Shown here piece by piece: positions 1 to 10,244 of a DNA stretch of 10,244 bases; within the stretch, counting starts at the first letter, position 1, and the number at the start of each line of letters is the position of its first letter. The DNA lies in IMG/VR virus record IMGVR_UViG_3300012281_000038; one strand, given 5' to 3'. The notes below the pieces were generated by a model that worked only from the letters and a program-made list of their open reading frames with translations, made no database searches and had not been told where the DNA came from. The DNA is from a virus. Lineage: Duplodnaviria; Heunggongvirae; Uroviricota; Caudoviricetes. The translations under genes were made by a program, and so were the position numbers.

Positions 1-243
1 CCCTTGCAGTGCATATTCACCACGGAATCCGGGGGCGTACACCGCATGGCATTCAACAATGCTATGCCAGAAGTTACGCACTTCATGAACGCCAGCCAGC
101 ACCAATCCTTCGTAGATACCGAGATATACCGCATCAGGCTTGATGTAGTACGTGTGCCCCGGCTCAACAATATTTTCGGTATTGCCAGGCTCGTTGAGAA
201 AGGCCTGTAATCGCACAGGGTTATCAATAAATTTTAGTTCCAT
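1..243 (-). CDS. hypothetical protein, N-terminal 81 codons only (gene continues past the left edge of the window)
   Basis: ATG at 243-241 on the minus strand, then an open frame to position 1 (MELKFIDNPVRLQAFLNEPGNTENIVEPGHTYYIKPDAV...). It starts 17 nt after the stop of the 53-aa ORF. It is absent from the supplied ORF track because no stop lies inside the window. No family recognised. Confidence 0.45.
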   Translation of the reverse strand, partial: MELKFIDNPVRLQAFLNEPGNTENIVEPGHTYYIKPDAVYLGIYEGLVLAGVHEVRNFWHSIVECHAVYAPGFRGEYALQG

Positions 244-259
244 GCGATGCCATCCATTT

Positions 260-421
260 TCACATACAGCCTGCCAGCGCCTTATCTATTAACCCTCGTG
301 CAATTTCATGCAGAGTTGGCGCTACTCCAATTCCTGATTTTTTACGCTGCTCTTCCTGAATTTTCTTTATCGCTTCCATTTGCTTCTCACTTATCAATAC
401 CGGCTTTACTGAAATAGCCAT
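260..421 (-). CDS. small hypothetical protein (53 aa), possibly a small DNA-binding regulator (ribbon-helix-helix-like pattern is a guess)
   Basis: ATG 421-419 preceded by GGGGG four nt upstream; stop TGA 262-260. Translation MAISVKPVLISEKQMEAIKKIQEEQRKKSGIGVAPTLHEIARGLIDKALAGCM. Below the 60-aa cut-off of the ORF track. Sits directly behind a LexA-box-like operator and -10 element. Confidence 0.4.
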   Translation of the reverse strand: MAISVKPVLISEKQMEAIKKIQEEQRKKSGIGVAPTLHEIARGLIDKALAGCM

Positions 422-434
422 AACGCCCCCTTAG

Positions 435-460
435 AACTGTATAAAACAACAGTTATTATA
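435..460 (-). promoter_or_regulatory. candidate SOS-type operator: palindrome AACTGT-N8-ACAGTT (435-454) abutting a perfect TATAAT -10 hexamer (460-455, minus strand)
   Basis: The sequence AACTGTATAAAACAACAGTT contains the CTGT-N8-ACAG core of the LexA box consensus TACTGTATATATATACAGTA. It lies between the -10 hexamer and the RBS/ATG of the 53-aa ORF. No convincing -35 hexamer was found. Confidence 0.4.
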
Positions 461-513
461 GTTTCACAAATCGCAATATTCATCATCGTAATTGCAAAAT
501 ATGAAACAGATAG

Positions 514-549
514 CACAAAAAAATGCCACCGCTCAGTAGCTGGTGGCAT
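514..549 (-). terminator. rho-independent terminator (minus-strand orientation)
   Basis: Perfect 8-bp stem ATGCCACC (523-530) / GGTGGCAT (542-549) with an 11-nt loop, followed on the minus strand by TTTTTTGTG (A-run 517-522 on plus). Lies downstream of the primase and ori region and upstream of the small LexA-box unit. Confidence 0.6.
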
Positions 550-742
550 CGTTCTGTGTGTCAGGTTTTGACAGGTTTTTTATGGACTCTAAAAACTATA
601 TTTATGGTGTCGCATTACTCTTCACGGCAGGCGCTTTTCAGTTCTGCCCTTGCTTCTGGCTCCATTGGTAATTTGATTCGCGATCAGCTATGCGGATGGT
701 TTGCTGAACAGGTATAACAACTTCTCAGGGGCTGTTTTCTGA

Positions 743-819
743 ACTACGAAAATTTCGTAGTGCTCACTTTCAAAAACGTCACGCCCTTGTACACAGGATT
801 TTACGAAAGTCTCGTAAAA
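743..819. repeat. two palindromes sharing a TACGA / TCGTA core: ACTACGAAA-A-TTTCGTAGT (743-761) and TTTTACGA-aagtc-TCGTAAAA (799-819)
   Basis: Both palindromes verified base by base (9-bp arms with a 1-nt centre; 8-bp arms with a 5-nt spacer). They lie in the non-coding stretch between the terminator and the iteron array. Confidence 0.6.
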
Positions 820-869
820 CACTCTCTGATGCCAGCCAGGTGTTGTGCGCATCAATTCAGTCACATTGT

Positions 870-989
870 GTTGGTTCAAAATACCGTGCTGTTGGTTCAG
901 TGTTGGTTCAATAAAAAGAATAAAATCCTTATAAAACAATACTCTTTACAAATTGAACCAACTGAACCAACTGAACCAACTGAACCAAC
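870..989. repeat. iteron array, putative replication origin: 3 x GTTGGTTCA (870-878, 891-899, 902-910), an AT-rich spacer (911-953), then 4 perfect tandem copies of the reverse-complement 9-mer TGAACCAAC (954-989)
   Basis: Repeats read directly from the sequence. The array ends 25 nt before the stop codon of the primase-helicase gene (1015). Inverted iterons flanking an AT-rich core next to the replication gene is the usual architecture of satellite and plasmid origins. Confidence 0.55.
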
Positions 990-1014
990 ACCTTTTCTAC
1001 GCACATGAAGAAGC

Positions 1015-3727
1015 TCATTCTTCAGATGAGTTGTAATCTCCTGGCTGGTAATTGAGTACATAAACGTTTATTTGTCGTCCCTGAATACGTGGTGATTTTC
1101 TTTGGTATCCACGACCGCTGTTTGGTGGGGTTAGCATCCCGGCTTTTTTCAACACTTCAGCAAACTGTTTTGCGTTGAAACCACATGCGATCTCCTTTTC
1201 AAATGTGGCCGGGAATGTGTAGAAAATCATTGGGCTTTCGTCATGTTCTCCACGCTGACGGTATCCGGCTAAATCTTTGATGGGCAAATCTGCCGGGCTG
1301 TATGGAAATGGTGCAAAACGGCTAAGCCCATAGGCATTAAGAAATGCCTCCGTTTGTTCAATAATCTGCTGATGTTCTTTGTTACCTGTGCCGAACTCGC
1401 GCAACCATGCGTTATAGCTGTGCTGTATCGCATCACGGCATGTCTGAGCATCCCAGCCTGTTACAACCTCGCCTAACAGCAATGCGGCCTCCAGAATGGC
1501 AAATCGCGCGGCTACACGGTGAACCTGCTCACCATAATCGGATGGGATCAGACTTCTCCATCTGCTTTCGCAGTCACGAACAGTTTTAATTGCCTGTTGC
1601 TGGTGGTCTGCCAGCCATTTAATCCACTCACGCCCGGCTGCGCCGTGGTGATGCTGGTAAGCGTCTTTCAGTGCGTCTGCGTGCTGTTTTCCGTTCTGGT
1701 AATCGTGAAAGCGTACTGCTTTACTCAACGGAATATTCAGCAGTCGCACCAGTTGCCCGGCTTTGGTTTTTCGCCCGGAAGTAGCGATAAATGTTTCTAA
1801 ATCCATTTCTCCGGTGCTGATTGCCACTGTACGCCAGCGTTTTAGATCCCGGTTTCCACCATCTTTAGCGCCTTGCAGTTTCCCTACGCCGTTAAATAAC
1901 GCATAGGCAGACTGTGAAACACTGACAGGATCAGCGCCCTGACCAACTTCATCAAGCGGCATTAGTCCGTCATTGTGGGCGGCGGCTTCATTTGCCAGCC
2001 CCAGCGCGGTTCCGTACCACGTCAGCCGCAGTAAATCAGGGTTGCCGTATAAGCTGCTCGCCACGTTTGCCGTGGTGGTCTTACCTGCGCTCGACTGCTC
2101 ATAGAAATGAATGCCGAACCCGTCAGCGCCCACCAGCCTAATCAATGGCGCTGCCAGTGCTGCGCCGATCCCGGTCATCATTGAATAGTTACCAAAGGCC
2201 AGACGCGCCACGTTATCACGCCAGCTTTTCGCGCTCCCTGAGACGGTATATCCGGCTGCGGCTGAGCTTCTCCCGCTGAACAGCACAGGATTTTCAGGTG
2301 TTCCGATGATTTCCCCATCAGGCATGATGTACGCTCCGCATTGCCAGCCAGTGGCATGAGCAACACGCCACAATTCACGAGAGCCACTGCGTTGTAGCCA
2401 GTCTGCCAGTATTGCTCTGAGGCTGCTTTTGGTCGTGACATTTACCCCACCAGCTTTAAGTGTGCGCCATCCTTCACGTTCACCAATATCAGCCAGTGGA
2501 ATGGCAGCGGTTGTCGGCGTTTCAGAACCAAACGACAGCCAGCGAAGAATGAGATACTGGTCTTTATCGTCTCTGCCAGTACCGATAACGCTTAACGGAG
2601 AACATAACCAGCTTTCGTTATTGATGATTTCTCCACTCTGGCTGTCAGCTCTCGGAGATACCCAATAAATGCCATCCTCGCGGCTTTCTATTCTTGGTTT
2701 CAGTGGGTCGGTATCCATAACCTTAAAATCGCTTCCCTCAATGGTTTGTGGCTCCTGTTTCACGCCATTACCCTGTGGTTGGTACATTGACTTATTGAAC
2801 GCTTCTGTGGCGCATTTAATGCCGTGTTTTTGGTGGTAATCATTCCAGTCTGCTTTGTGATCTGTCGGGGGTAATGCCACCCATCCAGAAACAGATAAAG
2901 CTGCTTTTTCTGCTGCTATTCTCCCCGTGTTTTGTCTTCCTTCGCGGTGGTCGTTATCCGCAGCAATGATGATTTGTGCTGAAGGAAATTTATCCTGCAG
3001 TACCTGGGCGACATATAACAGGTTCCCGGCATCAATCGCCGCCACTGTCAGCGCCTCTGGACGCATTAAATGGGCAGATAATGCCGTTGCCAGCCCTTCT
3101 GCGATTAAGATGCTCTGTGTTGTTTCTGGTGNNNNNNNNNNCACCATGTGAGGTAATAGTCTGTGCTGCTGTTACTGCGCCGGATTTATCCACCAGCGCC
3201 AGCAACAGAGATCCATCGGGCAACACGGGGAATGTAAAATCACCTACCCCTTTCGCAACCAGATAATCAGATTTGCCGTTTACAGCCTTTCTGCGCATGT
3301 CATCAAACTGACGGGAAAACGTATCCCGTCTTTGTTGTTCGTCCTTCTCTTCCCTTTTCAGGCGCTCCTGTTCGCGTCGCTGGCGCTCGGTTTCCAGTTG
3401 TTCCCGTTTCTGGCTGGTGGCTTCTGGTGTTTCCGTTGTCCGGTAATCAATACCCAGAACATCAGCGGCAAGAAGCGCCGCCTCTGTTGTGTCGCAGTTA
3501 TTTACGCGTTTAATTAAATCCAGCCCATCACCAGCGCCGCACTGATTACAGATGAAGCTACCGCGCCCGTTGTCATCGAACCGGAATCGATCTTTGCCCC
3601 CACATGCAGGGCAGGGAGCATGACGGCGCGGAGAGTCAGGGACATTTATGTTCAGGCAGCCCAGCACATGAGGCCAGTTGTTTTCAGACGCACTGATAAC
3701 CTGACGGATAAGATCAATGTTTCGCAT
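1015..3727 (-). CDS. DNA primase-helicase: N-terminal zinc-ribbon, TOPRIM domain, C-terminal P-loop NTPase (D5/DUF5906-like); reading frame broken at the 10-N run 3132-3141
   Basis: Track ORFs 3032-3730 and 1015-3147 are two halves of one gene. The N-terminal half has CPACGG...CNQCG (zinc ribbon). The second half has the TOPRIM signature (IAEGLATALS ... IIIAADNDHREGRQ) and a Walker-A-like SSAGKTT. The likely start is ATG 3727-3725 (GTG at 3730 is the track start). The two halves are in different frames across the N run. Confidence 0.85.
3132..3141. other. run of 10 N (masked or unresolved bases) inside the primase gene
   Basis: Literal n characters. Flanking reading frames differ by one, so the true length is probably not 10, or the gene is frameshifted. 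Confidence 0.95.
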
Positions 3728-4085
3728 CACCGTACCCCACGTGGTCTATAGCGTTTGCGATATGGCTAACCAGCATCTGCCACTTGGTTATTCCGTAATC
3801 AGTCAGCATGCCATCATTGTTTAGCCACATATCAAATTCAGCGGTTGTCGCAAGTTTCCACTTATCGCCGTGGACAGTCCTCATTGCTGGGTACATGAAT
3901 GCGCAAATCAGATCACAAACATCTGACGGCTTCAGAGATGTAGTAATGGTGCGTCCCTCTGGCGTCTGAATTGCCATTTTCTCTTCACCAGTAGAATGAA
4001 GGTTATGAATCCACACAGCGCCAGCAATCTTTGCCACCTGCTCTCCGATTGCGGAGCTAAGCGCCATTTCTGCATTTTCACGCAT
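3714..4085 (-). CDS. hypothetical protein (123 aa)
   Basis: ATG 4085-4083 with GGGAGG five nt upstream; stop TGA 3716-3714, overlapping the primase start by 14 nt. No family recognised. Confidence 0.6.
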   Translation of the reverse strand: MRENAEMALSSAIGEQVAKIAGAVWIHNLHSTGEEKMAIQTPEGRTITTSLKPSDVCDLICAFMYPAMRTVHGDKWKLATTAEFDMWLNNDGMLTDYGITKWQMLVSHIANAIDHVGYGDAKH

Positions 4086-4346
4086 GAGAACCTCCCGCTA
4101 CAGTTGCGCCCATGTCATTAACCATGCTTTGCCATATCTCACGCCCGACGTCAGTCAATCCGTCCTTAGTGACGCAACGATCAAGAAGCTCTATCCCCAC
4201 GGTTTCCCACTGCGGGTAGAACACTTTCATGGCTGCCANNNNNNNNNNNNNNNNNNNNNNNNNNNNNNNNNNNNNNNNNNNNNNNNNNNNAGTGCCGACG
4301 CATACTTATTTGCCAGCGCATTCAGTCGGAAATTTTTAGTAATCAT
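4078..4346 (-). CDS. hypothetical small protein interrupted by a 52-N run (extent and frame uncertain)
   Basis: ATG 4346-4344 (MITKNFRLNALANKYASA...) with GGATGGAG upstream. Beyond the N run the open frame ...MKVFYPQWETVGIELLDRCVTKDGLTDVGREIWQSMVNDMGATVAGGSHA ends at TGA 4080-4078, overlapping the ATG of the 123-aa gene (ATGCGTGA). Frames on the two sides of the gap disagree if the N count is literal. Confidence 0.3.
4239..4290. other. run of 52 N (masked or unresolved bases)
   Basis: Literal n characters. Confidence 0.95.
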
Positions 4347-4356
4347 GGCTCCATCC

Positions 4357-4959
4357 TCAGTGCGTCACTGGTTCCGCTGGCATGCCGTTTTCATTCAGTT
4401 CAGCTATAAAGCTGTTGTGAAGTTCAGCAAGCGTTTCACGACCAAATGGAGTCAGTGCTCCTTGTTCCACATCCATCATGGCTCTGTAGAAAATGATGGC
4501 GCGTTCTGTGCCAGACTCGATGCCAAAACGTTCTATCATCGCGCCCTCAATGTTGTTTGCCATAGCGAGGCGCTCTGCTACTGGATACAGCGGCATGGCG
4601 ACGATGCCGTTGGAATAAACAGCCACTTCGGAAGGATTGCCAGTATCATCAATGATGCTGACAGTGCCGTTTTCCTCTCTCATTTCCAGCATGAATACTG
4701 TTGCGATCAGCCATCTCCACATAATGACGTTATGCTGTGATGTGTAATCGAAATATCCTTGGTTGCCGCCATCGGCAATAGCGAGATGTATTGACATACC
4801 TTCATCTGGTTTATCGTCATAATCCCCGGCATCCAGACGATTTACGGCATCAATATATGAAACGGCCTCAACGCGTTCTGTCATGCCATCGTTGCTGCGG
4901 TGCATGATGTTTACGCCGTCAGGCGTTGCTTCTGCATGGAAGGTTAAGAAATTATTCAT
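4357..4959 (-). CDS. hypothetical protein (about 200 aa)
   Basis: Preferred start ATG 4959-4957 (MNNFLTFHAEATPDG...) with GAGG seven nt upstream, overlapping the stop of the preceding 73-aa gene (ATGAATAA). The track extends the ORF to 5064 but that part overlaps the upstream gene. Stop TGA 4359-4357. Confidence 0.6.
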   Translation of the reverse strand: MNNFLTFHAEATPDGVNIMHRSNDGMTERVEAVSYIDAVNRLDAGDYDDKPDEGMSIHLAIADGGNQGYFDYTSQHNVIMWRWLIATVFMLEMREENGTVSIIDDTGNPSEVAVYSNGIVAMPLYPVAERLAMANNIEGAMIERFGIESGTERAIIFYRAMMDVEQGALTPFGRETLAELHNSFIAELNENGMPAEPVTH

Positions 4960-5173
4960 GTTTCGCCTCGCCTGAATGATTCTGTAACTCATATTTGCCC
5001 AACAATTCGTCTGCTTCCTGAATAGCTTCTGGTACGCCATTGAGCAGTGACATAACCGCGCCAATCATTAACTTGTCTCTGTTGCTGGGGCTGGCCCCTT
5101 CAAGCCAGAACCCTAAAACAGTCTGAACCTGTTCGATGCGACATTGCGCTTCAATGAGCTGGATGTTGGTCAT
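4952..5173 (-). CDS. hypothetical small protein (73 aa)
   Basis: ATG 5173-5171 with GGAGAG six nt upstream; stop TAA 4954-4952, overlapping the next start. Confidence 0.55.
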   Translation of the reverse strand: MTNIQLIEAQCRIEQVQTVLGFWLEGASPSNRDKLMIGAVMSLLNGVPEAIQEADELLGKYELQNHSGEAKHE

Positions 5174-5207
5174 TTCGCACTCTCCGCATCGATTAAACTG
5201 ATATCTA

Positions 5208-5432
5208 TCAGAGAGGTAACTTTTGTAGCCAGCTAGTGATTACTGTCGCCTGTTCCCCTCCCACCGATGGAAGAATCTCATTCATCACATGAACCAGACC
5301 TGTGCGCGCTCTGGTAAGCCGTTCAGTCGTGCGATCTGCAAGAGTGAATGTGTCTGGATATGGCTCTTCACGGCTCAGCAATGATTCAATTTCCAGCTCA
5401 CACGGATGACGATAAATTAAGTTGATATTCAT
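5208..5432 (-). CDS. hypothetical small protein (74 aa)
   Basis: ATG 5432-5430 overlaps the stop of the upstream gene (ATGA). Stop TGA 5210-5208. Confidence 0.55.
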   Translation of the reverse strand: MNINLIYRHPCELEIESLLSREEPYPDTFTLADRTTERLTRARTGLVHVMNEILPSVGGEQATVITSWLQKLPL

Positions 5433-5623
5433 TTTTCACCCCCAAGAATTACCAGCTCTGCACGAGCATCGTTAACCAAAGATGAGCACGCTTTAATCGC
5501 ATCCACGACATCAGCAGCGTCCATTTCTTCAGCCGAAAGACTGACAGCAACCAAGACAGCCGCTGCTTGCTCGATTAATTGAAGTGCGGACGTAAGTCGA
5601 GGGGCATTAATTGAGTTATTCAT
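5429..5623 (-). CDS. hypothetical small protein (64 aa, MNNSINAPRLTSALQLIEQ...)
   Basis: Preferred start ATG 5623-5621 preceded by GGGGG, overlapping the stop of the upstream ORF (ATGAATAA). The longer track ORF starting at 5680 overlaps the upstream frame. Confidence 0.5.
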   Translation of the reverse strand: MNNSINAPRLTSALQLIEQAAAVLVAVSLSAEEMDAADVVDAIKACSSLVNDARAELVILGGEK

Positions 5624-6683
5624 TGGTTGCCCCCGTTTTTCCTGGCATTTCGCCACCTTCCAGCAGGAAATGAACGTCACGAACGGCGAGATCCAATATC
5701 GCGAGTAACGCCTTCAGTTTTTCGTCTCGTGAGGGAGAGTTGCTCACCAGAATGTCATTAATCACTTCTGTCAGTGTGATGATCTGGCTTGTGCGTTCGA
5801 GGGGATCCATATGCACATCGTAGGTTTTAATCATGTGCCACCTCCATGCGGATACGACCAGCAAAAAAGCAGACGTGATCGCGCACCAGAGAACGGCGAG
5901 CATCGCGTTCAGACTCGGCAGCAATATGATGAATTTTGGCGGTAATTGTCGGGCAATCGCGGCGAACTGCGGCGATAATCCAGATAAATTGCGGTTTTTG
6001 GGTAGGGGTAGTAGCCAGCATGTGGCAGCCTCCTTGTACTGGGAATTCTTCCCACCACCGGAGCTGCGAAACTCGCTGGTGGTGGACTGAACAGAGTTCG
6101 CAGTACCGGCGTACAAGGAAACCGGCCAGCCTTTCGGCTGCCCTGTCCAGCCCACCATAATTTTGCAAGCGACGCGGATTATAACCACATCACTGAAAAA
6201 AGTGTGAGTCTGGCTAACGGCACAAAAAAAGACGCTCGGCGCGTCATGTGTCGCCTCGTACATTTCCGGGCTGCGAAACCCGGCACCCGTTTTATGAGGT
6301 GCCTTATAACCATAAACCGTGTTGCCGCATAACGACAAGCTCTTTTTTATGGACTCCGAAAACTCACTATTGGAAGCACCAGATGCACAATACATCGCGC
6401 TCATTTCGTTAACGTCGCGCGTGTGGACGAAGGTTTTTGTGGAGCCACTACGCGAGCAGAGAAAGCCATCTACGACCAGAAATTCTCTGGCGCAGCCGCT
6501 GACCCTCTCAACGATAACACCATCGACCGTAATTTCTGACATAGTTAAGGCATCCGCTCCTACCACCAGCAAATGATAAACTTTGCTTGCATCTGCTGTA
6601 TTAATGCCTGATTTTGCTGTCATATTGCTGGATTTTTGCCACATACCAGCCAGTGAAAATATCTTCTTCTGGGCGGTTAGCAT
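5616..6683 (-). CDS. 355-aa open frame of doubtful integrity: good start signals, but the middle contains hairpins and T-runs and may be non-coding or a structured RNA; an internal start would give a 72-aa C-terminal product (5616-5834)
   Basis: ATG 6683-6681 with GGAGG seven nt upstream and the same ATGNNNTAA overlap with the preceding gene as elsewhere in the operon. The frame stays open for 355 codons. The central part is low-complexity and carries a terminator-like hairpin with T-run (6224-6245) and two hairpins sharing the 10-mer GCTGCGAAAC. An internal GGAGG + ATG (5834-5832) precedes a well-formed C-terminal segment MIKTYDVHMDPLERTSQ... Confidence 0.35.
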   Translation of the reverse strand: MLTAQKKIFSLAGMWQKSSNMTAKSGINTADASKVYHLLVVGADALTMSEITVDGVIVERVSGCAREFLVVDGFLCSRSGSTKTFVHTRDVNEMSAMYCASGASNSEFSESIKKSLSLCGNTVYGYKAPHKTGAGFRSPEMYEATHDAPSVFFCAVSQTHTFFSDVVIIRVACKIMVGWTGQPKGWPVSLYAGTANSVQSTTSEFRSSGGGKNSQYKEAATCWLLPLPKNRNLSGLSPQFAAIARQLPPKFIILLPSLNAMLAVLWCAITSAFLLVVSAWRWHMIKTYDVHMDPLERTSQIITLTEVINDILVSNSPSRDEKLKALLAILDLAVRDVHFLLEGGEMPGKTGATNE

Positions 6684-6859
6684 TTGTTAACCTCCGCGAA
6701 CTCCTTCATGAAACGTGCCAGCGGTTGTACGCATGGCGATTGATACCCGTCGCGATAAAACGTCACTCGGTTGTGAGACACGCTTTCGACAGTAACGAGT
6801 GCTCCGTGGGCATCTTTGTAGCGTTTTTGAGGTTGTGGTGTTCCTGTCGGCTTAAACAT
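6677..6859 (-). CDS. hypothetical small protein (60 aa)
   Basis: ATG 6859-6857 with GGAGG eight nt upstream, overlapping the stop of the antirepressor gene (ATGTTTAA). Stop TAA 6679-6677. Confidence 0.5.
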   Translation of the reverse strand: MFKPTGTPQPQKRYKDAHGALVTVESVSHNRVTFYRDGYQSPCVQPLARFMKEFAEVNKC

Positions 6860-7700
6860 GGACCGCCTCCAGACGCTTAGCGAGCCAGCGTTGCGACAGG
6901 CGGGTGAGTTCTCCTTTGCGCTGCTCATATTCCATGCCCATATCAATTAACGTGATATTGGTGCTTTCGAGATATGAGAGGTGCTCAAGCTGTTCTGCGT
7001 TCATATGGTCGCGAGGTTCGCCAGAATAGCCATTTATCCGCGCCCACTGCTTAGCAGTTAGCCCACCAAGAACGATACGAGAAATCATATTGCTCTCGTT
7101 TGTGTAGTGGTGTTGCTGCGTCGTTTTACCCATCTCGGCACGGGCCATATTCAGCGCATCGCACATTGGCTTAAAGTTGTTTGCGGCACTGATACGGGCT
7201 TTTAGCTGGCGACGATAGCGGGCGGCGATTTCAGGCACGCTACGCTGTAATTCTTCCTCGCACTGGATGAAATAACGGCGGATAGCGCGACCCTGATCAT
7301 TGCGTTCGATCATTGCCAGTTCTTTCGCCATTCCGACACTTAACAGATAGTCTTTGCCGGGTCTGCCAGACTGCTTAATCTTGCTGTAAGCCGCGCCATT
7401 CGGGCTTTTCCCCAAATTTGGGGAAATTGTTTTATGGACTGAGTAATCGCGCCCAATGGTGAAGTCATACTCAGAGATGCGNNNNNNNNNNNNNNNNNNN
7501 NNNNNNNNNNNNNAGAAGTCTTTTCCCACGCCCAACGCTTTGTGTAACGCTTTTGCGCTAACAATATTGGTTTCACGCCCACCGATATGACCAGGAATAA
7601 CCGGGACAATTGCGGCAAATTCATTACCGTTAATTGTGCCCAGAAAGGCGTTCGGATGAGGGGCGGCCTCAGAAATTAATCTGCTTTTTTCGATGTTCAT
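6852..7700 (-). CDS. phage antirepressor-like protein (AntA N-terminal domain + KilA-C/ANT C-terminal domain)
   Basis: ATG 7700-7698 with GGAGA upstream. Motifs VSAKALHKALGVGKDF ... GRPGKDYLLSVGMAKELAMIERNDQGRAIRRYFIQCEEEL match the AntA/KilAC antirepressor pattern. A 32-N run (7482-7513) falls inside without disturbing the frame. Confidence 0.75.
   Translation of the reverse strand: MNIEKSRLISEAAPHPNAFLGTINGNEFAAIVPVIPGHIGGRETNIVSAKALHKALGVGKDFXXXXXXXXXXXRISEYDFTIGRDYSVHKTISPNLGKSPNGAAYSKIKQSGRPGKDYLLSVGMAKELAMIERNDQGRAIRRYFIQCEEELQRSVPEIAARYRRQLKARISAANNFKPMCDALNMARAEMGKTTQQHHYTNESNMISRIVLGGLTAKQWARINGYSGEPRDHMNAEQLEHLSYLESTNITLIDMGMEYEQRKGELTRLSQRWLAKRLEAVHV
7482..7513. other. run of 32 N (masked or unresolved bases) inside the antirepressor gene
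   Basis: Literal n characters. Confidence 0.95.
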
Positions 7701-7712
7701 TTTCAGTCTCCG

Positions 7713-8144
7713 TTAGGCGGCGTTAAACGCGTCCGGGTAGAGTTTCAGAATGTCGGCAATTTCCTGCTGAGAAAGTCCGTTGTGATCATTTATGTTCGCA
7801 AGATGGTTAACATGAGTGATCACTTTCAGAACATCACCACGGCAGGAGAAACGGTAGCGAAGGTGTGCTCCGATACCATCAGGATTCTTTTCGTCGATAC
7901 GCTCCAGAGTGATCCCAAGCTGGCGTTCTAACTCTGTTGCATAGTTACGACCAGAAGACAGACGGCAGTAGCGAAGAATGTCGTTTTCTGTCCATCCCTC
8001 TATACCAGTACGCAGCATATAGACTCGGGCGCGATGCTTTTTCGGTGTGCGCTTTGGTGCTTGAAGGGATTTTGTCAGGGGCGTAACATCAGATACGCGA
8101 ATATCTGAATTAGCCGCCTGTAATGGGCGGTTTTTCTTTTCCAT
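7713..8144 (-). CDS. hypothetical protein (143 aa), basic N-terminus, possible C-terminal helix-turn-helix
   Basis: ATG 8144-8142 overlaps the alpA-like stop (TGATG). Stop TAA 7715-7713. The C-terminal GLSQQEIADILKL resembles an HTH recognition segment. No family confidently recognised. Confidence 0.55.
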   Translation of the reverse strand: MEKKNRPLQAANSDIRVSDVTPLTKSLQAPKRTPKKHRARVYMLRTGIEGWTENDILRYCRLSSGRNYATELERQLGITLERIDEKNPDGIGAHLRYRFSCRGDVLKVITHVNHLANINDHNGLSQQEIADILKLYPDAFNAA

Positions 8145-8347
8145 CAGGCCACCTTCCCGCGGCGTTCTGCCAGCCAGTTGTGAATCTCAACCGCATCAAA
8201 CGCAGTTATTTTTTCTCCCAGCTTTACCGGACGTGGTAGTGAACCGTTTCTTACTTTACGGTCGATGGTGGATACACTAACGCCCAGCAATTCAGCCAAG
8301 CGGAAGCGTCTGATATAGCCTTTTGTAGGAATAGTGTCAGTGTTCAT
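8144..8347 (-). CDS. alpA: AlpA-family phage transcriptional regulator / excisionase-like HTH protein (67 aa)
   Basis: Translation MNTDTIPTKGYIRRFRLAELLGVSVSTIDRKVRNGSLPRPVKLGEKITAFDAVEIHNWLAERRG fits the AlpA (Phage_AlpA) HTH pattern. ATG 8347-8345. Position between integrase and replication genes is typical. Confidence 0.8.
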   Translation of the reverse strand: MNTDTIPTKGYIRRFRLAELLGVSVSTIDRKVRNGSLPRPVKLGEKITAFDAVEIHNWLAERRGKVA

Positions 8348-9422: not shown

Positions 9423-10244
9423 TCATGCTCTAATTGGTGTCACGTTGTAGTCTTTTCCGCTTTCCAGTGCCACCAGCAGATCAGCCCACTGTGCCAGTGC
9501 TGCTTTACGCTCATCAAAATACTGATGGCGGTTATAAATCCCCTCTATGCCCTTAATGCGATGATTGAGGCATCGTTCCGCCACGACAGGATCAACACCC
9601 AACGCTGCTAAATGAGTACGTGCGGTGCGTCGGAAGTCGTGAATCGTGAAATTAGGCACATCCGGCATTTCGGCGCGAACCTTAGCCAGTGCTACGGGTA
9701 AAGTGCTTTCCTGAATATGTGGGATCATTCTGTTTTGCATTTTCCTGGCTGGAAGCACCCATGCGCTATTACATGAAAAGGTGTGAAGCTCTCTCAACCA
9801 TTCAACGGCTGGGGAAGGTAGAGGTATATCAATAGGGTCTCCGTTTTTGCTGCGTTCTTCCGGCAAATGCCATACCGCACCATCTAAATCAAACTCTTCC
9901 CATCGTGCGGCGCATAACTCCATCTTACGAACGCATAGTGCCAGCAATAGCTTAAATGTCAGTTCGTTCTGGCGGCTGAATCCTTTTGCGGTGCGCATAG
10001 CCTCGAATAGCCTGATAAGCTCATCGCGAGTTAGCCAACGGTCGCGGGAAACCTCTTTACCACCAGCATCAGATACTTCAAACGCTGAACAAGGGTTTAT
10101 CTCCAGAGCGTGGCGTTTTATCCCATAGTCAAAGATACGGCGTGTCCAGCGTAATACATCTGTTGCTATCGTTGGTGCTCCTCGGTCAACGATACCTTTC
10201 AACATGTCGTCAATGTGGCGTGGCTTAACGTCCTCTACCTTCAT
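9423..10244 (-). CDS. int: tyrosine recombinase / phage integrase, C-terminal catalytic portion (N-terminus lies beyond the right edge)
   Basis: Catalytic-domain motifs: R in LCVRKMELCAARWEE, HDFRRTARTHLAALG (H-x-x-R), NHRIKGIEGIYNRHQY (catalytic Tyr region). Stop TGA 9425-9423. The ATG at the window edge is probably internal. Confidence 0.9.
   Translation of the reverse strand: MKVEDVKPRHIDDMLKGIVDRGAPTIATDVLRWTRRIFDYGIKRHALEINPCSAFEVSDAGGKEVSRDRWLTRDELIRLFEAMRTAKGFSRQNELTFKLLLALCVRKMELCAARWEEFDLDGAVWHLPEERSKNGDPIDIPLPSPAVEWLRELHTFSCNSAWVLPARKMQNRMIPHIQESTLPVALAKVRAEMPDVPNFTIHDFRRTARTHLAALGVDPVVAERCLNHRIKGIEGIYNRHQYFDERKAALAQWADLLVALESGKDYNVTPIRA

Follow-up and report, generated by a model that had tools for sequence, protein, structure and literature searches.

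A probable iteron origin beside the primase-helicase gene of a PICI-type satellite at the Escherichia yicC-dinD site

The island and its primase-helicase gene

The window (the whole stretch of 10,244 nt that was analyzed) is 98.4% identical to an island of about 20.4 kb that occupies the interval from dinD to yicC in E. coli strain P4 (L001). All the genes of the window lie on the minus strand and comprise an integrase, an AlpA-family regulator, an antirepressor, an Ash-family ORF, several small ORFs and a primase-helicase. Past the latter comes an intergenic region of 593 nt which holds a repeat array, followed by a 53-aa ORF and, beyond the edge of the window, by DUF2824 and ejection-protein genes. 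The main genes are the following:

9423-10244, minus strand: integrase gene
8144-8347, minus strand: gene of an AlpA-family HTH regulator
6075-6162 and 6225-6302, minus strand: C4 antisense RNA and isrK, both above the Rfam gathering score (81 bits and 69 bits, respectively)
1015..3727, minus strand: pri-rep gene, a fused primase/initiator-helicase (918 aa in near-identical loci)
1048..1323, minus strand: region coding for a predicted C-terminal winged-helix domain (AF2 model, Foldseek, tail/iteron tracking)
1057-1107, minus strand: region coding for the wing YQRKSPRIQGRQINVYV, part of the predicted winged helix

As in Gram-negative PICIs, the island is small, carries co-oriented int, alpA-type regulator and pri genes, has a specific att site and is without a complete set of genes for phage structure and lysis. 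The gene order is also that of Gram-negative PICIs (PMC6092414; PMC10111431). C4 and isrK are situated within the annotated Ash-family ORF, which makes a P4-type RNA immunity region in a PICI-like island. Also, a DUF2824 protein and proteins homologous to the DNA-ejection proteins of the P22 type are encoded at window positions 1-243 and L001 positions 3585-8243. Near these ejection genes, neither capsid nor terminase genes were found, no par genes were found nearby in the window, and a tRNA search across the window found none. A literature search for a PICI with P22-type ejection-protein cargo found nothing.

Three runs of N (3132-3141, 4239-4290 and 7482-7513) are shorter than the DNA that they replace (52 N for 125 nt, for example), so that ORFs spanning them look frameshifted though intact. 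This is the case of the primase ORF, which seems broken at 3132-3141 because 10 N replace there 54 nt present in near-identical loci. When these 54 nt are restored from the near-identical loci, the gene runs from 1015 to 3727 and encodes 918 aa.

The Pfam domains of the pri-rep protein are Zn_Ribbon_Prim (residues 34-69), Toprim_3 (221-318) and DUF927 (365-643, E 3.5e-47), with no Pfam match over the last 275 residues or so, and PHROG 1139 "DNA primase" matches the protein as well. The N-terminal 360 aa or so align with the primase part of P4 alpha at 33% identity (E 9e-42), and beyond about residue 360 no alignment with P4 alpha was obtained. Residues 402-813 match the "Pathogenicity island protein" of PDB entry 8tch (E 1.4e-11), and the SCCmec helicase Cch (5dgk) gives a weaker sequence match (E 0.012). 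The last 281 residues were modeled with AlphaFold (AF2) from 48 homologues. The model reached a mean pLDDT of 76.6, which is a moderate confidence (83-95 over model residues 200-270), and a pTM of 0.48, and consists of a helical bundle, then beta-strands, two helices (217-224 and 230-239) and wing strands to 265-271. Its best matches in Foldseek were Cch (5dgk, E 7e-5) and the wHTH protein TcpK on oriT DNA (5vfx, prob 0.99), and the origin-binding domain of P4 alpha was not among the 50 best Foldseek matches. These comparisons predict a protein in which a P4-type primase is joined to an initiator-helicase of the SaPI-Rep type that carries a winged-helix tail.

The iteron array and the limits of the probable origin module

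The intergenic region contains seven exact copies of one 9-mer, which are the only ones in the whole window and all lie inside 120 nt (870-989). When one mismatch was allowed, 9 matches were counted in the window for 2.4 expected, and none of 200 shuffled sequences got to 9. From the stop codon of the primase-helicase (1015-1017, minus-strand ORF) outwards, the region is organized as follows:

990..1014: linker from the stop codon to the first iteron, with a short inverted repeat of CATGTG core
954..989, plus strand: four perfect tandem iterons TGAACCAAC of period 9 (954-962, 963-971, 972-980, 981-989), read as GTTGGTTCA on the gene strand
911..953: AT-rich spacer (84% AT), the presumed unwinding region
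870..910, minus strand: three inverted iterons, GTTGGTTCA at 870-878, 891-899 and 902-910, with start-to-start spacings of 21 and 11
824..869: distal flank of the putative origin, with the motif CCAGCCAGG at 832-840 (gene-strand reading CCTGGCTGG)
745-759 and 802-816: palindromes TACGAAAATTTCGTA and TACGAAAGTCTCGTA
514-558, minus strand: GC-rich hairpin GATGCCACC ... GGTGGCAT, then TTTTTTT
437-452 with 455-460, and 421..260 (minus strand for the ORF): parts of the LexA-box module, the ORF being that of 53 aa

The sequence-only reading of this DNA had described three inverted copies, an AT-rich spacer and four perfect tandem copies, with 25 nt between the end of the array and the primase-helicase stop; all of this was confirmed to the base. 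The spacer measures 43 nt and has 83.7% AT, for an average of 51.7% in the window. Neither a DnaA box nor an IHF consensus was found in 824-1014, which agrees with an initiator that loads itself. A DNA search with positions 600-1100 against a phage collection returned two weak partial matches only. We also considered ORF 760-1008, which would translate the repeats into an EPTEPTEPT run, as a coding sequence; it was rejected, as RefSeq annotates no CDS there and the repeat changes together with the protein tail.

The same reading had placed two palindromes in the origin, which it extended over 743-989. The palindromes are present, in the form TACGA-N5-TCGTA and 57 nt apart, and this type of palindrome has 2 matches in the window for 0.19 expected (2 of 200 shuffles got to 2). 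Other TACGA-N5-TCGTA matches in the loci fall within coding sequence and look coincidental. However, membership of the palindromes in a primase-specific origin had to be rejected, since the relatives (all loci compared, see below) match the intergenic region of the window over about 866-1012 only, and since window positions 422-823 recur beside an unrelated DUF5906 replicase. The palindromes are found beside that replicase (L006) and in a circular element of 12 kb (L092), and they move together with the LexA-box module, showing no conservation with the primase. They could be the operator of some regulator. The extent first given, of which 743-869 was the part with the palindromes, should thus be trimmed, and the origin module covers approximately 824-1014, because the relatives match only about 866-1012 and the identity with L006 stops at 823.

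The LexA-box core CTGTATAAAACAACAG at 437-452 is perfect and the sole one in the window. A TATAAT lies closely upstream of it, and the 53-aa ORF lies 15 nt downstream; in L001, this ORF leads the genes of DUF2824 and of the P22-type ejection proteins. The arrangement looks like that of a late/cargo operon under SOS control which directly follows the origin, similar to SaPI operon I. The hairpin at 514-558 resembles a terminator and may end the primase transcript, in which case transcription of the primase operon passes through the origin. The palindromes, the hairpin and the LexA box are parts of this neighbouring module.

Layout, tail covariation and cassette exchange in relatives

A profile of three homologues was used to collect 80 loci from species-representative genomes, mostly of Enterobacterales and with protein identity down to 43%. 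In each locus, the stop codon was located and the most repeated 9-mer was then taken from the DNA beyond it. Such a comparison with the iterons of related elements had been proposed as a check of the sequence-only reading, and it bore it out: after the stop codon, about 70 of the 80 loci share a linker of 22-30 nt, 2-4 tandem 9-mers of period 9, an AT-rich spacer of about 43 nt and inverted 9-mers. The 11/21 spacing of the inverted 9-mers is constant in the relatives regardless of the iteron sequence, the linker of most of them carries a CACATG/CATGTG palindrome, and their spacer, at the same position, has 75-90% AT and a partly conserved TG(A/T)TTTATAAGG motif. The iteron 8-mer is nearly confined to the 330 nt past the stop codon in each locus of about 10 kb. 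About half of these loci add a second unit, which brings them to 12 iterons in approximately 285 bp, with inverted tandem arrays at both ends. The window, with 7 iterons, is the short form, while many relatives have 12. Also, the C-terminal part of the primase together with the origin DNA was found, at a coverage of at least 80%, in 362 of 5,426 complete E. coli genomes.

Different lineages have different 9-mers, and within one locus the copies all change together. Each iteron sequence comes with a given protein tail: the 38 loci with GTTGGTTCA all have the tail [YF]Q[RQ]KSPR..RQ..V.V, the tail YQGRVRE[DG]GRQIRVYV pairs with GTTGTCTCA, TRK[ST]LRIDGKQPRFVVL with GTCGGTTCA, KKKAL..GGKQH.FYVL with ACGGGTTA or GTGGGTTA, and YKKRTITVDG.RPLFYVL with AGTGTGTCA. 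There is one exception, as GTTGTCTCA accompanies two different tails. Over 64 loci, the distance between iterons correlated with the distance between the last 50 residues or so (r 0.73), also when the helicase core was controlled for (partial Mantel r 0.72, with 0 of 2000 permutations as high, a count that is an indication and no true probability because the loci are related sequences). The correlation with the helicase core was weak (r 0.31; partial -0.27). Individual loci give the same picture: L014 has a core 92% identical to the window type, yet another tail and another iteron, and L046 and L048 have cores only about 60% identical and the tail and iteron of the window type. In the sequences compared, the iteron tracks the last 50 or so residues of the protein rather than its helicase core.

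This relation bears on a reading of the array as a nucleic-acid structure, either a DNA cruciform or an RNA structure or terminator at the 3' end of the primase transcript. Positions 860-1017, read on the transcribed strand, indeed fold at -54 kcal/mol (z-score -5.5), and they belong to the untranslated 3' region of this transcript, with the terminator-like hairpin (514-558) downstream of them. However, any opposed pair of iteron sets would fold in this way, the fold following automatically from their inversion, and the structure is not followed by a T-run, the separate terminator-like hairpin being further downstream. The conserved unequal spacings (9, 9 on one side, 11, 21 on the other), which give bulged arms, the number of tandem copies, which varies from 2 to 4, and a repeat sequence that follows the protein tail, which a hairpin does not predict, argue together for the binding of a protein. 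We therefore consider a role as hairpin highly improbable.

The number of tandem copies varies even between near-identical elements (3 in L008, 3 in L092, 4 in L001), and L007 carries an orphan iteron cluster without a primase gene. Slippage, or the decay of a functionless remnant, would account for both observations, but hardly for seven perfect copies, nor for an architecture kept across genera down to about 50% protein identity in which all copies change in concert, and we grant it next to no probability.

A natural exchange was found in E. coli isolate AF10 (L006). The first 214 residues or so of its replicase (5737-8088) are identical to the window type, and identity is 86% up to residue 344; past this residue, the protein is unrelated to the window type and of the DUF5906 kind. 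Past the replicase gene, L006 has repeats of a different type, GGTGGTACAGG. Exactly from window position 823 onwards, its DNA again matches the window (96.5% identity), through position 422 and on into the 53-aa ORF and the genes of the ejection proteins. L006 keeps the primase domain and the downstream module, so that helicase, tail and iterons were exchanged as one unit. The same exchange bears on whether the repeats serve packaging (pac/cos), partition or the transcriptional control of the LexA-box operon downstream. Packaging and partition sites are also marked by arrays of short repeats, and the array lies about 400 nt upstream of the LexA-box promoter region. But the repeats move with the helicase and tail cassette and not with the downstream module, the downstream genes vary widely among the relatives (ssb-perC, capsid or ejection-protein genes) while the repeat layout is constant, and no par or terminase gene is found nearby in the window. 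Such roles are thus very unlikely.

Known replicons, proposed mechanism and a second iteron cluster

The origin of SaPIs has 6-12 iterons directly after the rep ORF, with a central AT-rich region and at least 2 opposed iterons on each side; the C-terminal winged helix of SaPI Rep binds the iterons and the helicase loads itself (PMC9371898). The origins of E. coli PICIs are located 3' of pri-rep, where two sets of iterons border an AT-rich region, and EcCICFT073's pri-rep-ori stretch drives replication (Fillol-Salom et al., 2018, PMC6092414). In the window, the initiator has a DUF927 AAA+ helicase homologous to SaPI Rep, the first iteron follows the pri-rep frame at 26 nt past the stop, 4 + 3 opposed iterons surround the AT-rich center of 43 nt, and computational evidence points to a C-terminal winged helix that sets specificity. 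This design matches the published SaPI/PICI Pri-Rep-ori (Fillol-Salom 2018; Qiao 2022).

The proteins of SaPIbov1, SaPI1 and SaPI5 (PriRep5) share the helicase part (8tch), and SaPI5 likewise fuses a primase to Rep. The SaPIs also have their origin after the rep stop, opposed short iterons split by an AT-rich center and a C-terminal winged helix. However, SaPIs belong to Staphylococcus aureus, whereas the host here is Gram-negative; their iterons have 5-6 bp, instead of 9 bp here. Also, the primase here is a TOPRIM primase of the P4-alpha kind, the proximal iterons follow one another in a strict tandem of period 9, and the identity to SaPI Rep is low. EcCICFT073 resembles the island by its succession of int, alpA-type regulator, pri, ori and late/accessory zone, all on one strand, and EcCIRM13514 is a reference PICI at the same yicC-dinD site. 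L003 and L002 likewise show an origin 3' of pri in which an AT-rich region lies between two iteron sets. Nevertheless, the seven reference E. coli PICIs inspected have a D5_N/DUF5906 "DNA primase family protein" or a RepA helicase, and not TOPRIM + DUF927. Their iterons are different too (TCTACC-type in CFT073, TGTTCACC in RM13514), and the late zone here, in contrast to that of EcCICFT073, has P22-type ejection-protein genes. Text searches of the literature for the 9-mer strings, for cf-PICI origins and for P4 crr returned nothing relevant. As far as can be told, and leaving aside the published figure of PICI iterons, the TOPRIM-DUF927 replicon with its TGAACCAAC iteron has not been individually described.

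Plasmids such as pSC101, R6K, RK2, F and P1 also have an initiator which binds repeated short sequences beside an AT-rich region. Their iterons are direct repeats of 17-22 bp, usually accompanied by DnaA boxes, and the initiator is a small Rep protein without helicase or primase that needs the host DnaA, DnaB and DnaC. The likeness is therefore limited to initiator-bound short repeats beside an AT-rich region, as the window has opposed sets of 9-mers, no DnaA box, and an initiator which is itself a helicase-primase; it does not fall in the RepA/pi/TrfA class of iteron replicons.

The comparison with P4 is closer. The N-terminal zinc-ribbon/TOPRIM primase is homologous to that of P4 alpha, primase, helicase and origin binding are combined in one polypeptide, an iteron cluster lies directly downstream of the gene, a C4/isrK RNA region is present, and the full island has two clusters. 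However, the helicase/DNA-binding part is unrelated, being of the DUF927 type here and D5_N/DUF5906/Pox_D5 in P4 alpha; this alpha-type helicase/origin-binding region is absent from the protein. P4 iterons are 8-mers, annotated as type 1 repeats, and the gene-proximal cluster of P4 is crr, the origin being 4.5 kb away. No sid, delta or psu gene was found in the window.

The second cluster of the full island has the same 9-mer and is located beside perC, with 3 copies spaced 21/21, an AT-rich spacer and 3 tandem copies. Its positions are:

L001 1279-1399, inverted relative to the window cluster: second cluster, outside the window and 7.6 kb from the window cluster
L092 8436-8556, inverted relative to the window cluster: second cluster, 1.9 kb from the other cluster
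L007 3984-4105, in another strain: orphan copy of the second cluster

L092 (NZ_CP148430.1) is a circular record of 12,152 bp from an E. coli genome project, with int, an antirepressor, the primase (99.6% identical), the origin and perC. Its origin has 3+3 iterons, and the record holds no other replicase gene. As an observation from an assembly, this fits an excised, self-replicating form of the element. A Salmonella "plasmid" (OX345456) was also considered as evidence and was discarded, as it is a linear draft contig.

With two clusters in the island and in the circle, and with the P4 record annotating as crr the cluster directly downstream of alpha, the main rival to an origin function is that of a crr-like auxiliary site in cis: the initiator would bind the window cluster and replication would start elsewhere, for example at the perC cluster (itself an AT-rich spacer and tandem array with the same 9-mer), as P4 needs both ori and crr. 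This rival is weakened by the relatives, since in nearly all of the 70 the cluster after the stop is the sole one within 4 kb on either side. Moreover, the window cluster has its own AT-rich center between opposed iterons, which is the published PICI/SaPI origin design, and the helicase/DNA-binding part of the protein is of the SaPI-Rep type rather than the P4-alpha type. We consider a purely auxiliary function unlikely, although the window cluster could be an auxiliary site or be insufficient on its own.

Taken together, positions 824-1014 (core 870-989) are most probably the cognate replication origin of a Gram-negative PICI-type satellite of the Escherichia yicC-dinD site, and they may be one of two origin units. 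The idea of a satellite iteron origin bound by the adjacent replication protein and forming one replication module with it, which had been put forward from the letters of the sequence, is supported by the homology to SaPI Rep, the winged-helix model, the layout, the covariation, the cassette exchange and the circle of 12 kb without other replicase.

The mechanism that we propose is inferred by analogy with the experimentally studied replicons of SaPIs and EcCICFT073. The winged-helix tail, chiefly by its wing YQRKSPRIQGRQINVYV, would bind the 9-bp iteron TGAACCAAC. As the two iteron sets face each other across a spacer of 43 bp with 84% AT, protomers could assemble on both sides and melt the spacer. 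They would then load themselves as hexameric helicases, without DnaA or a separate loader, the fused primase would make the first primers, and the host polymerase would copy the excised island. The fold model, the covariation and the natural exchange, all computational, support the winged-helix tail as the element that sets iteron specificity. The window-type tail would thus prefer TGAACCAAC over TGAGACAAC and TGAACCGAC, and replacing RKSPRIQGRQIN by GRVREDGRQIR in the tail would switch the preference from TGAACCAAC to TGAGACAAC.

Such origins are already part of the accepted mechanism of SaPIs and E. coli PICIs, so that no concept is changed here. Our data nevertheless pin down an origin and its likely specificity determinant for a common replicon with relatives across Enterobacterales. 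The matched natural pairs of tail and iteron also constitute ready material for studying how 9-mers are read by a winged helix, and they help to predict incompatibility or cross-replication of co-resident satellites.

The outer flank of the second cluster resembles the far end of the 12-iteron form, which suggests that a cargo module was placed within a formerly single long origin. On this basis, the window cluster might be what was half of an ancestral palindromic origin with 12 iterons over about 285 bp, split in this E. coli lineage by the LexA-box cargo module into two distant inverted units, a scenario which we hold as doubtful. In the 12-kb circle, the proposed inserted module measures 1.8 kb; in the island, it measures 7.6 kb and includes the P22-type ejection genes. 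If the origin was split in this way, the two units would work like ori and crr of P4, or initiation at the flanks would preferentially amplify the cargo between them.

Two minor observations concern other repeats and motifs. The origin of EcCIRM13514 (L002 9057-9300) has TGTTCACC/GGTGAACA repeats, which we take to be the octamer of the P4 type 1 repeats. Also, a CTGGC-type motif occurs 35-45 nt past the third inverted iteron in 37 of 72 loci, for a background of 20%. A T-rich stretch followed by CTGGC(TGG) is seen at 832-840 in the window and at about +170 nt from the stop in the relatives, and in a few loci the CTGGC-type motif reads GCTGGTGG, which is the Chi sequence.
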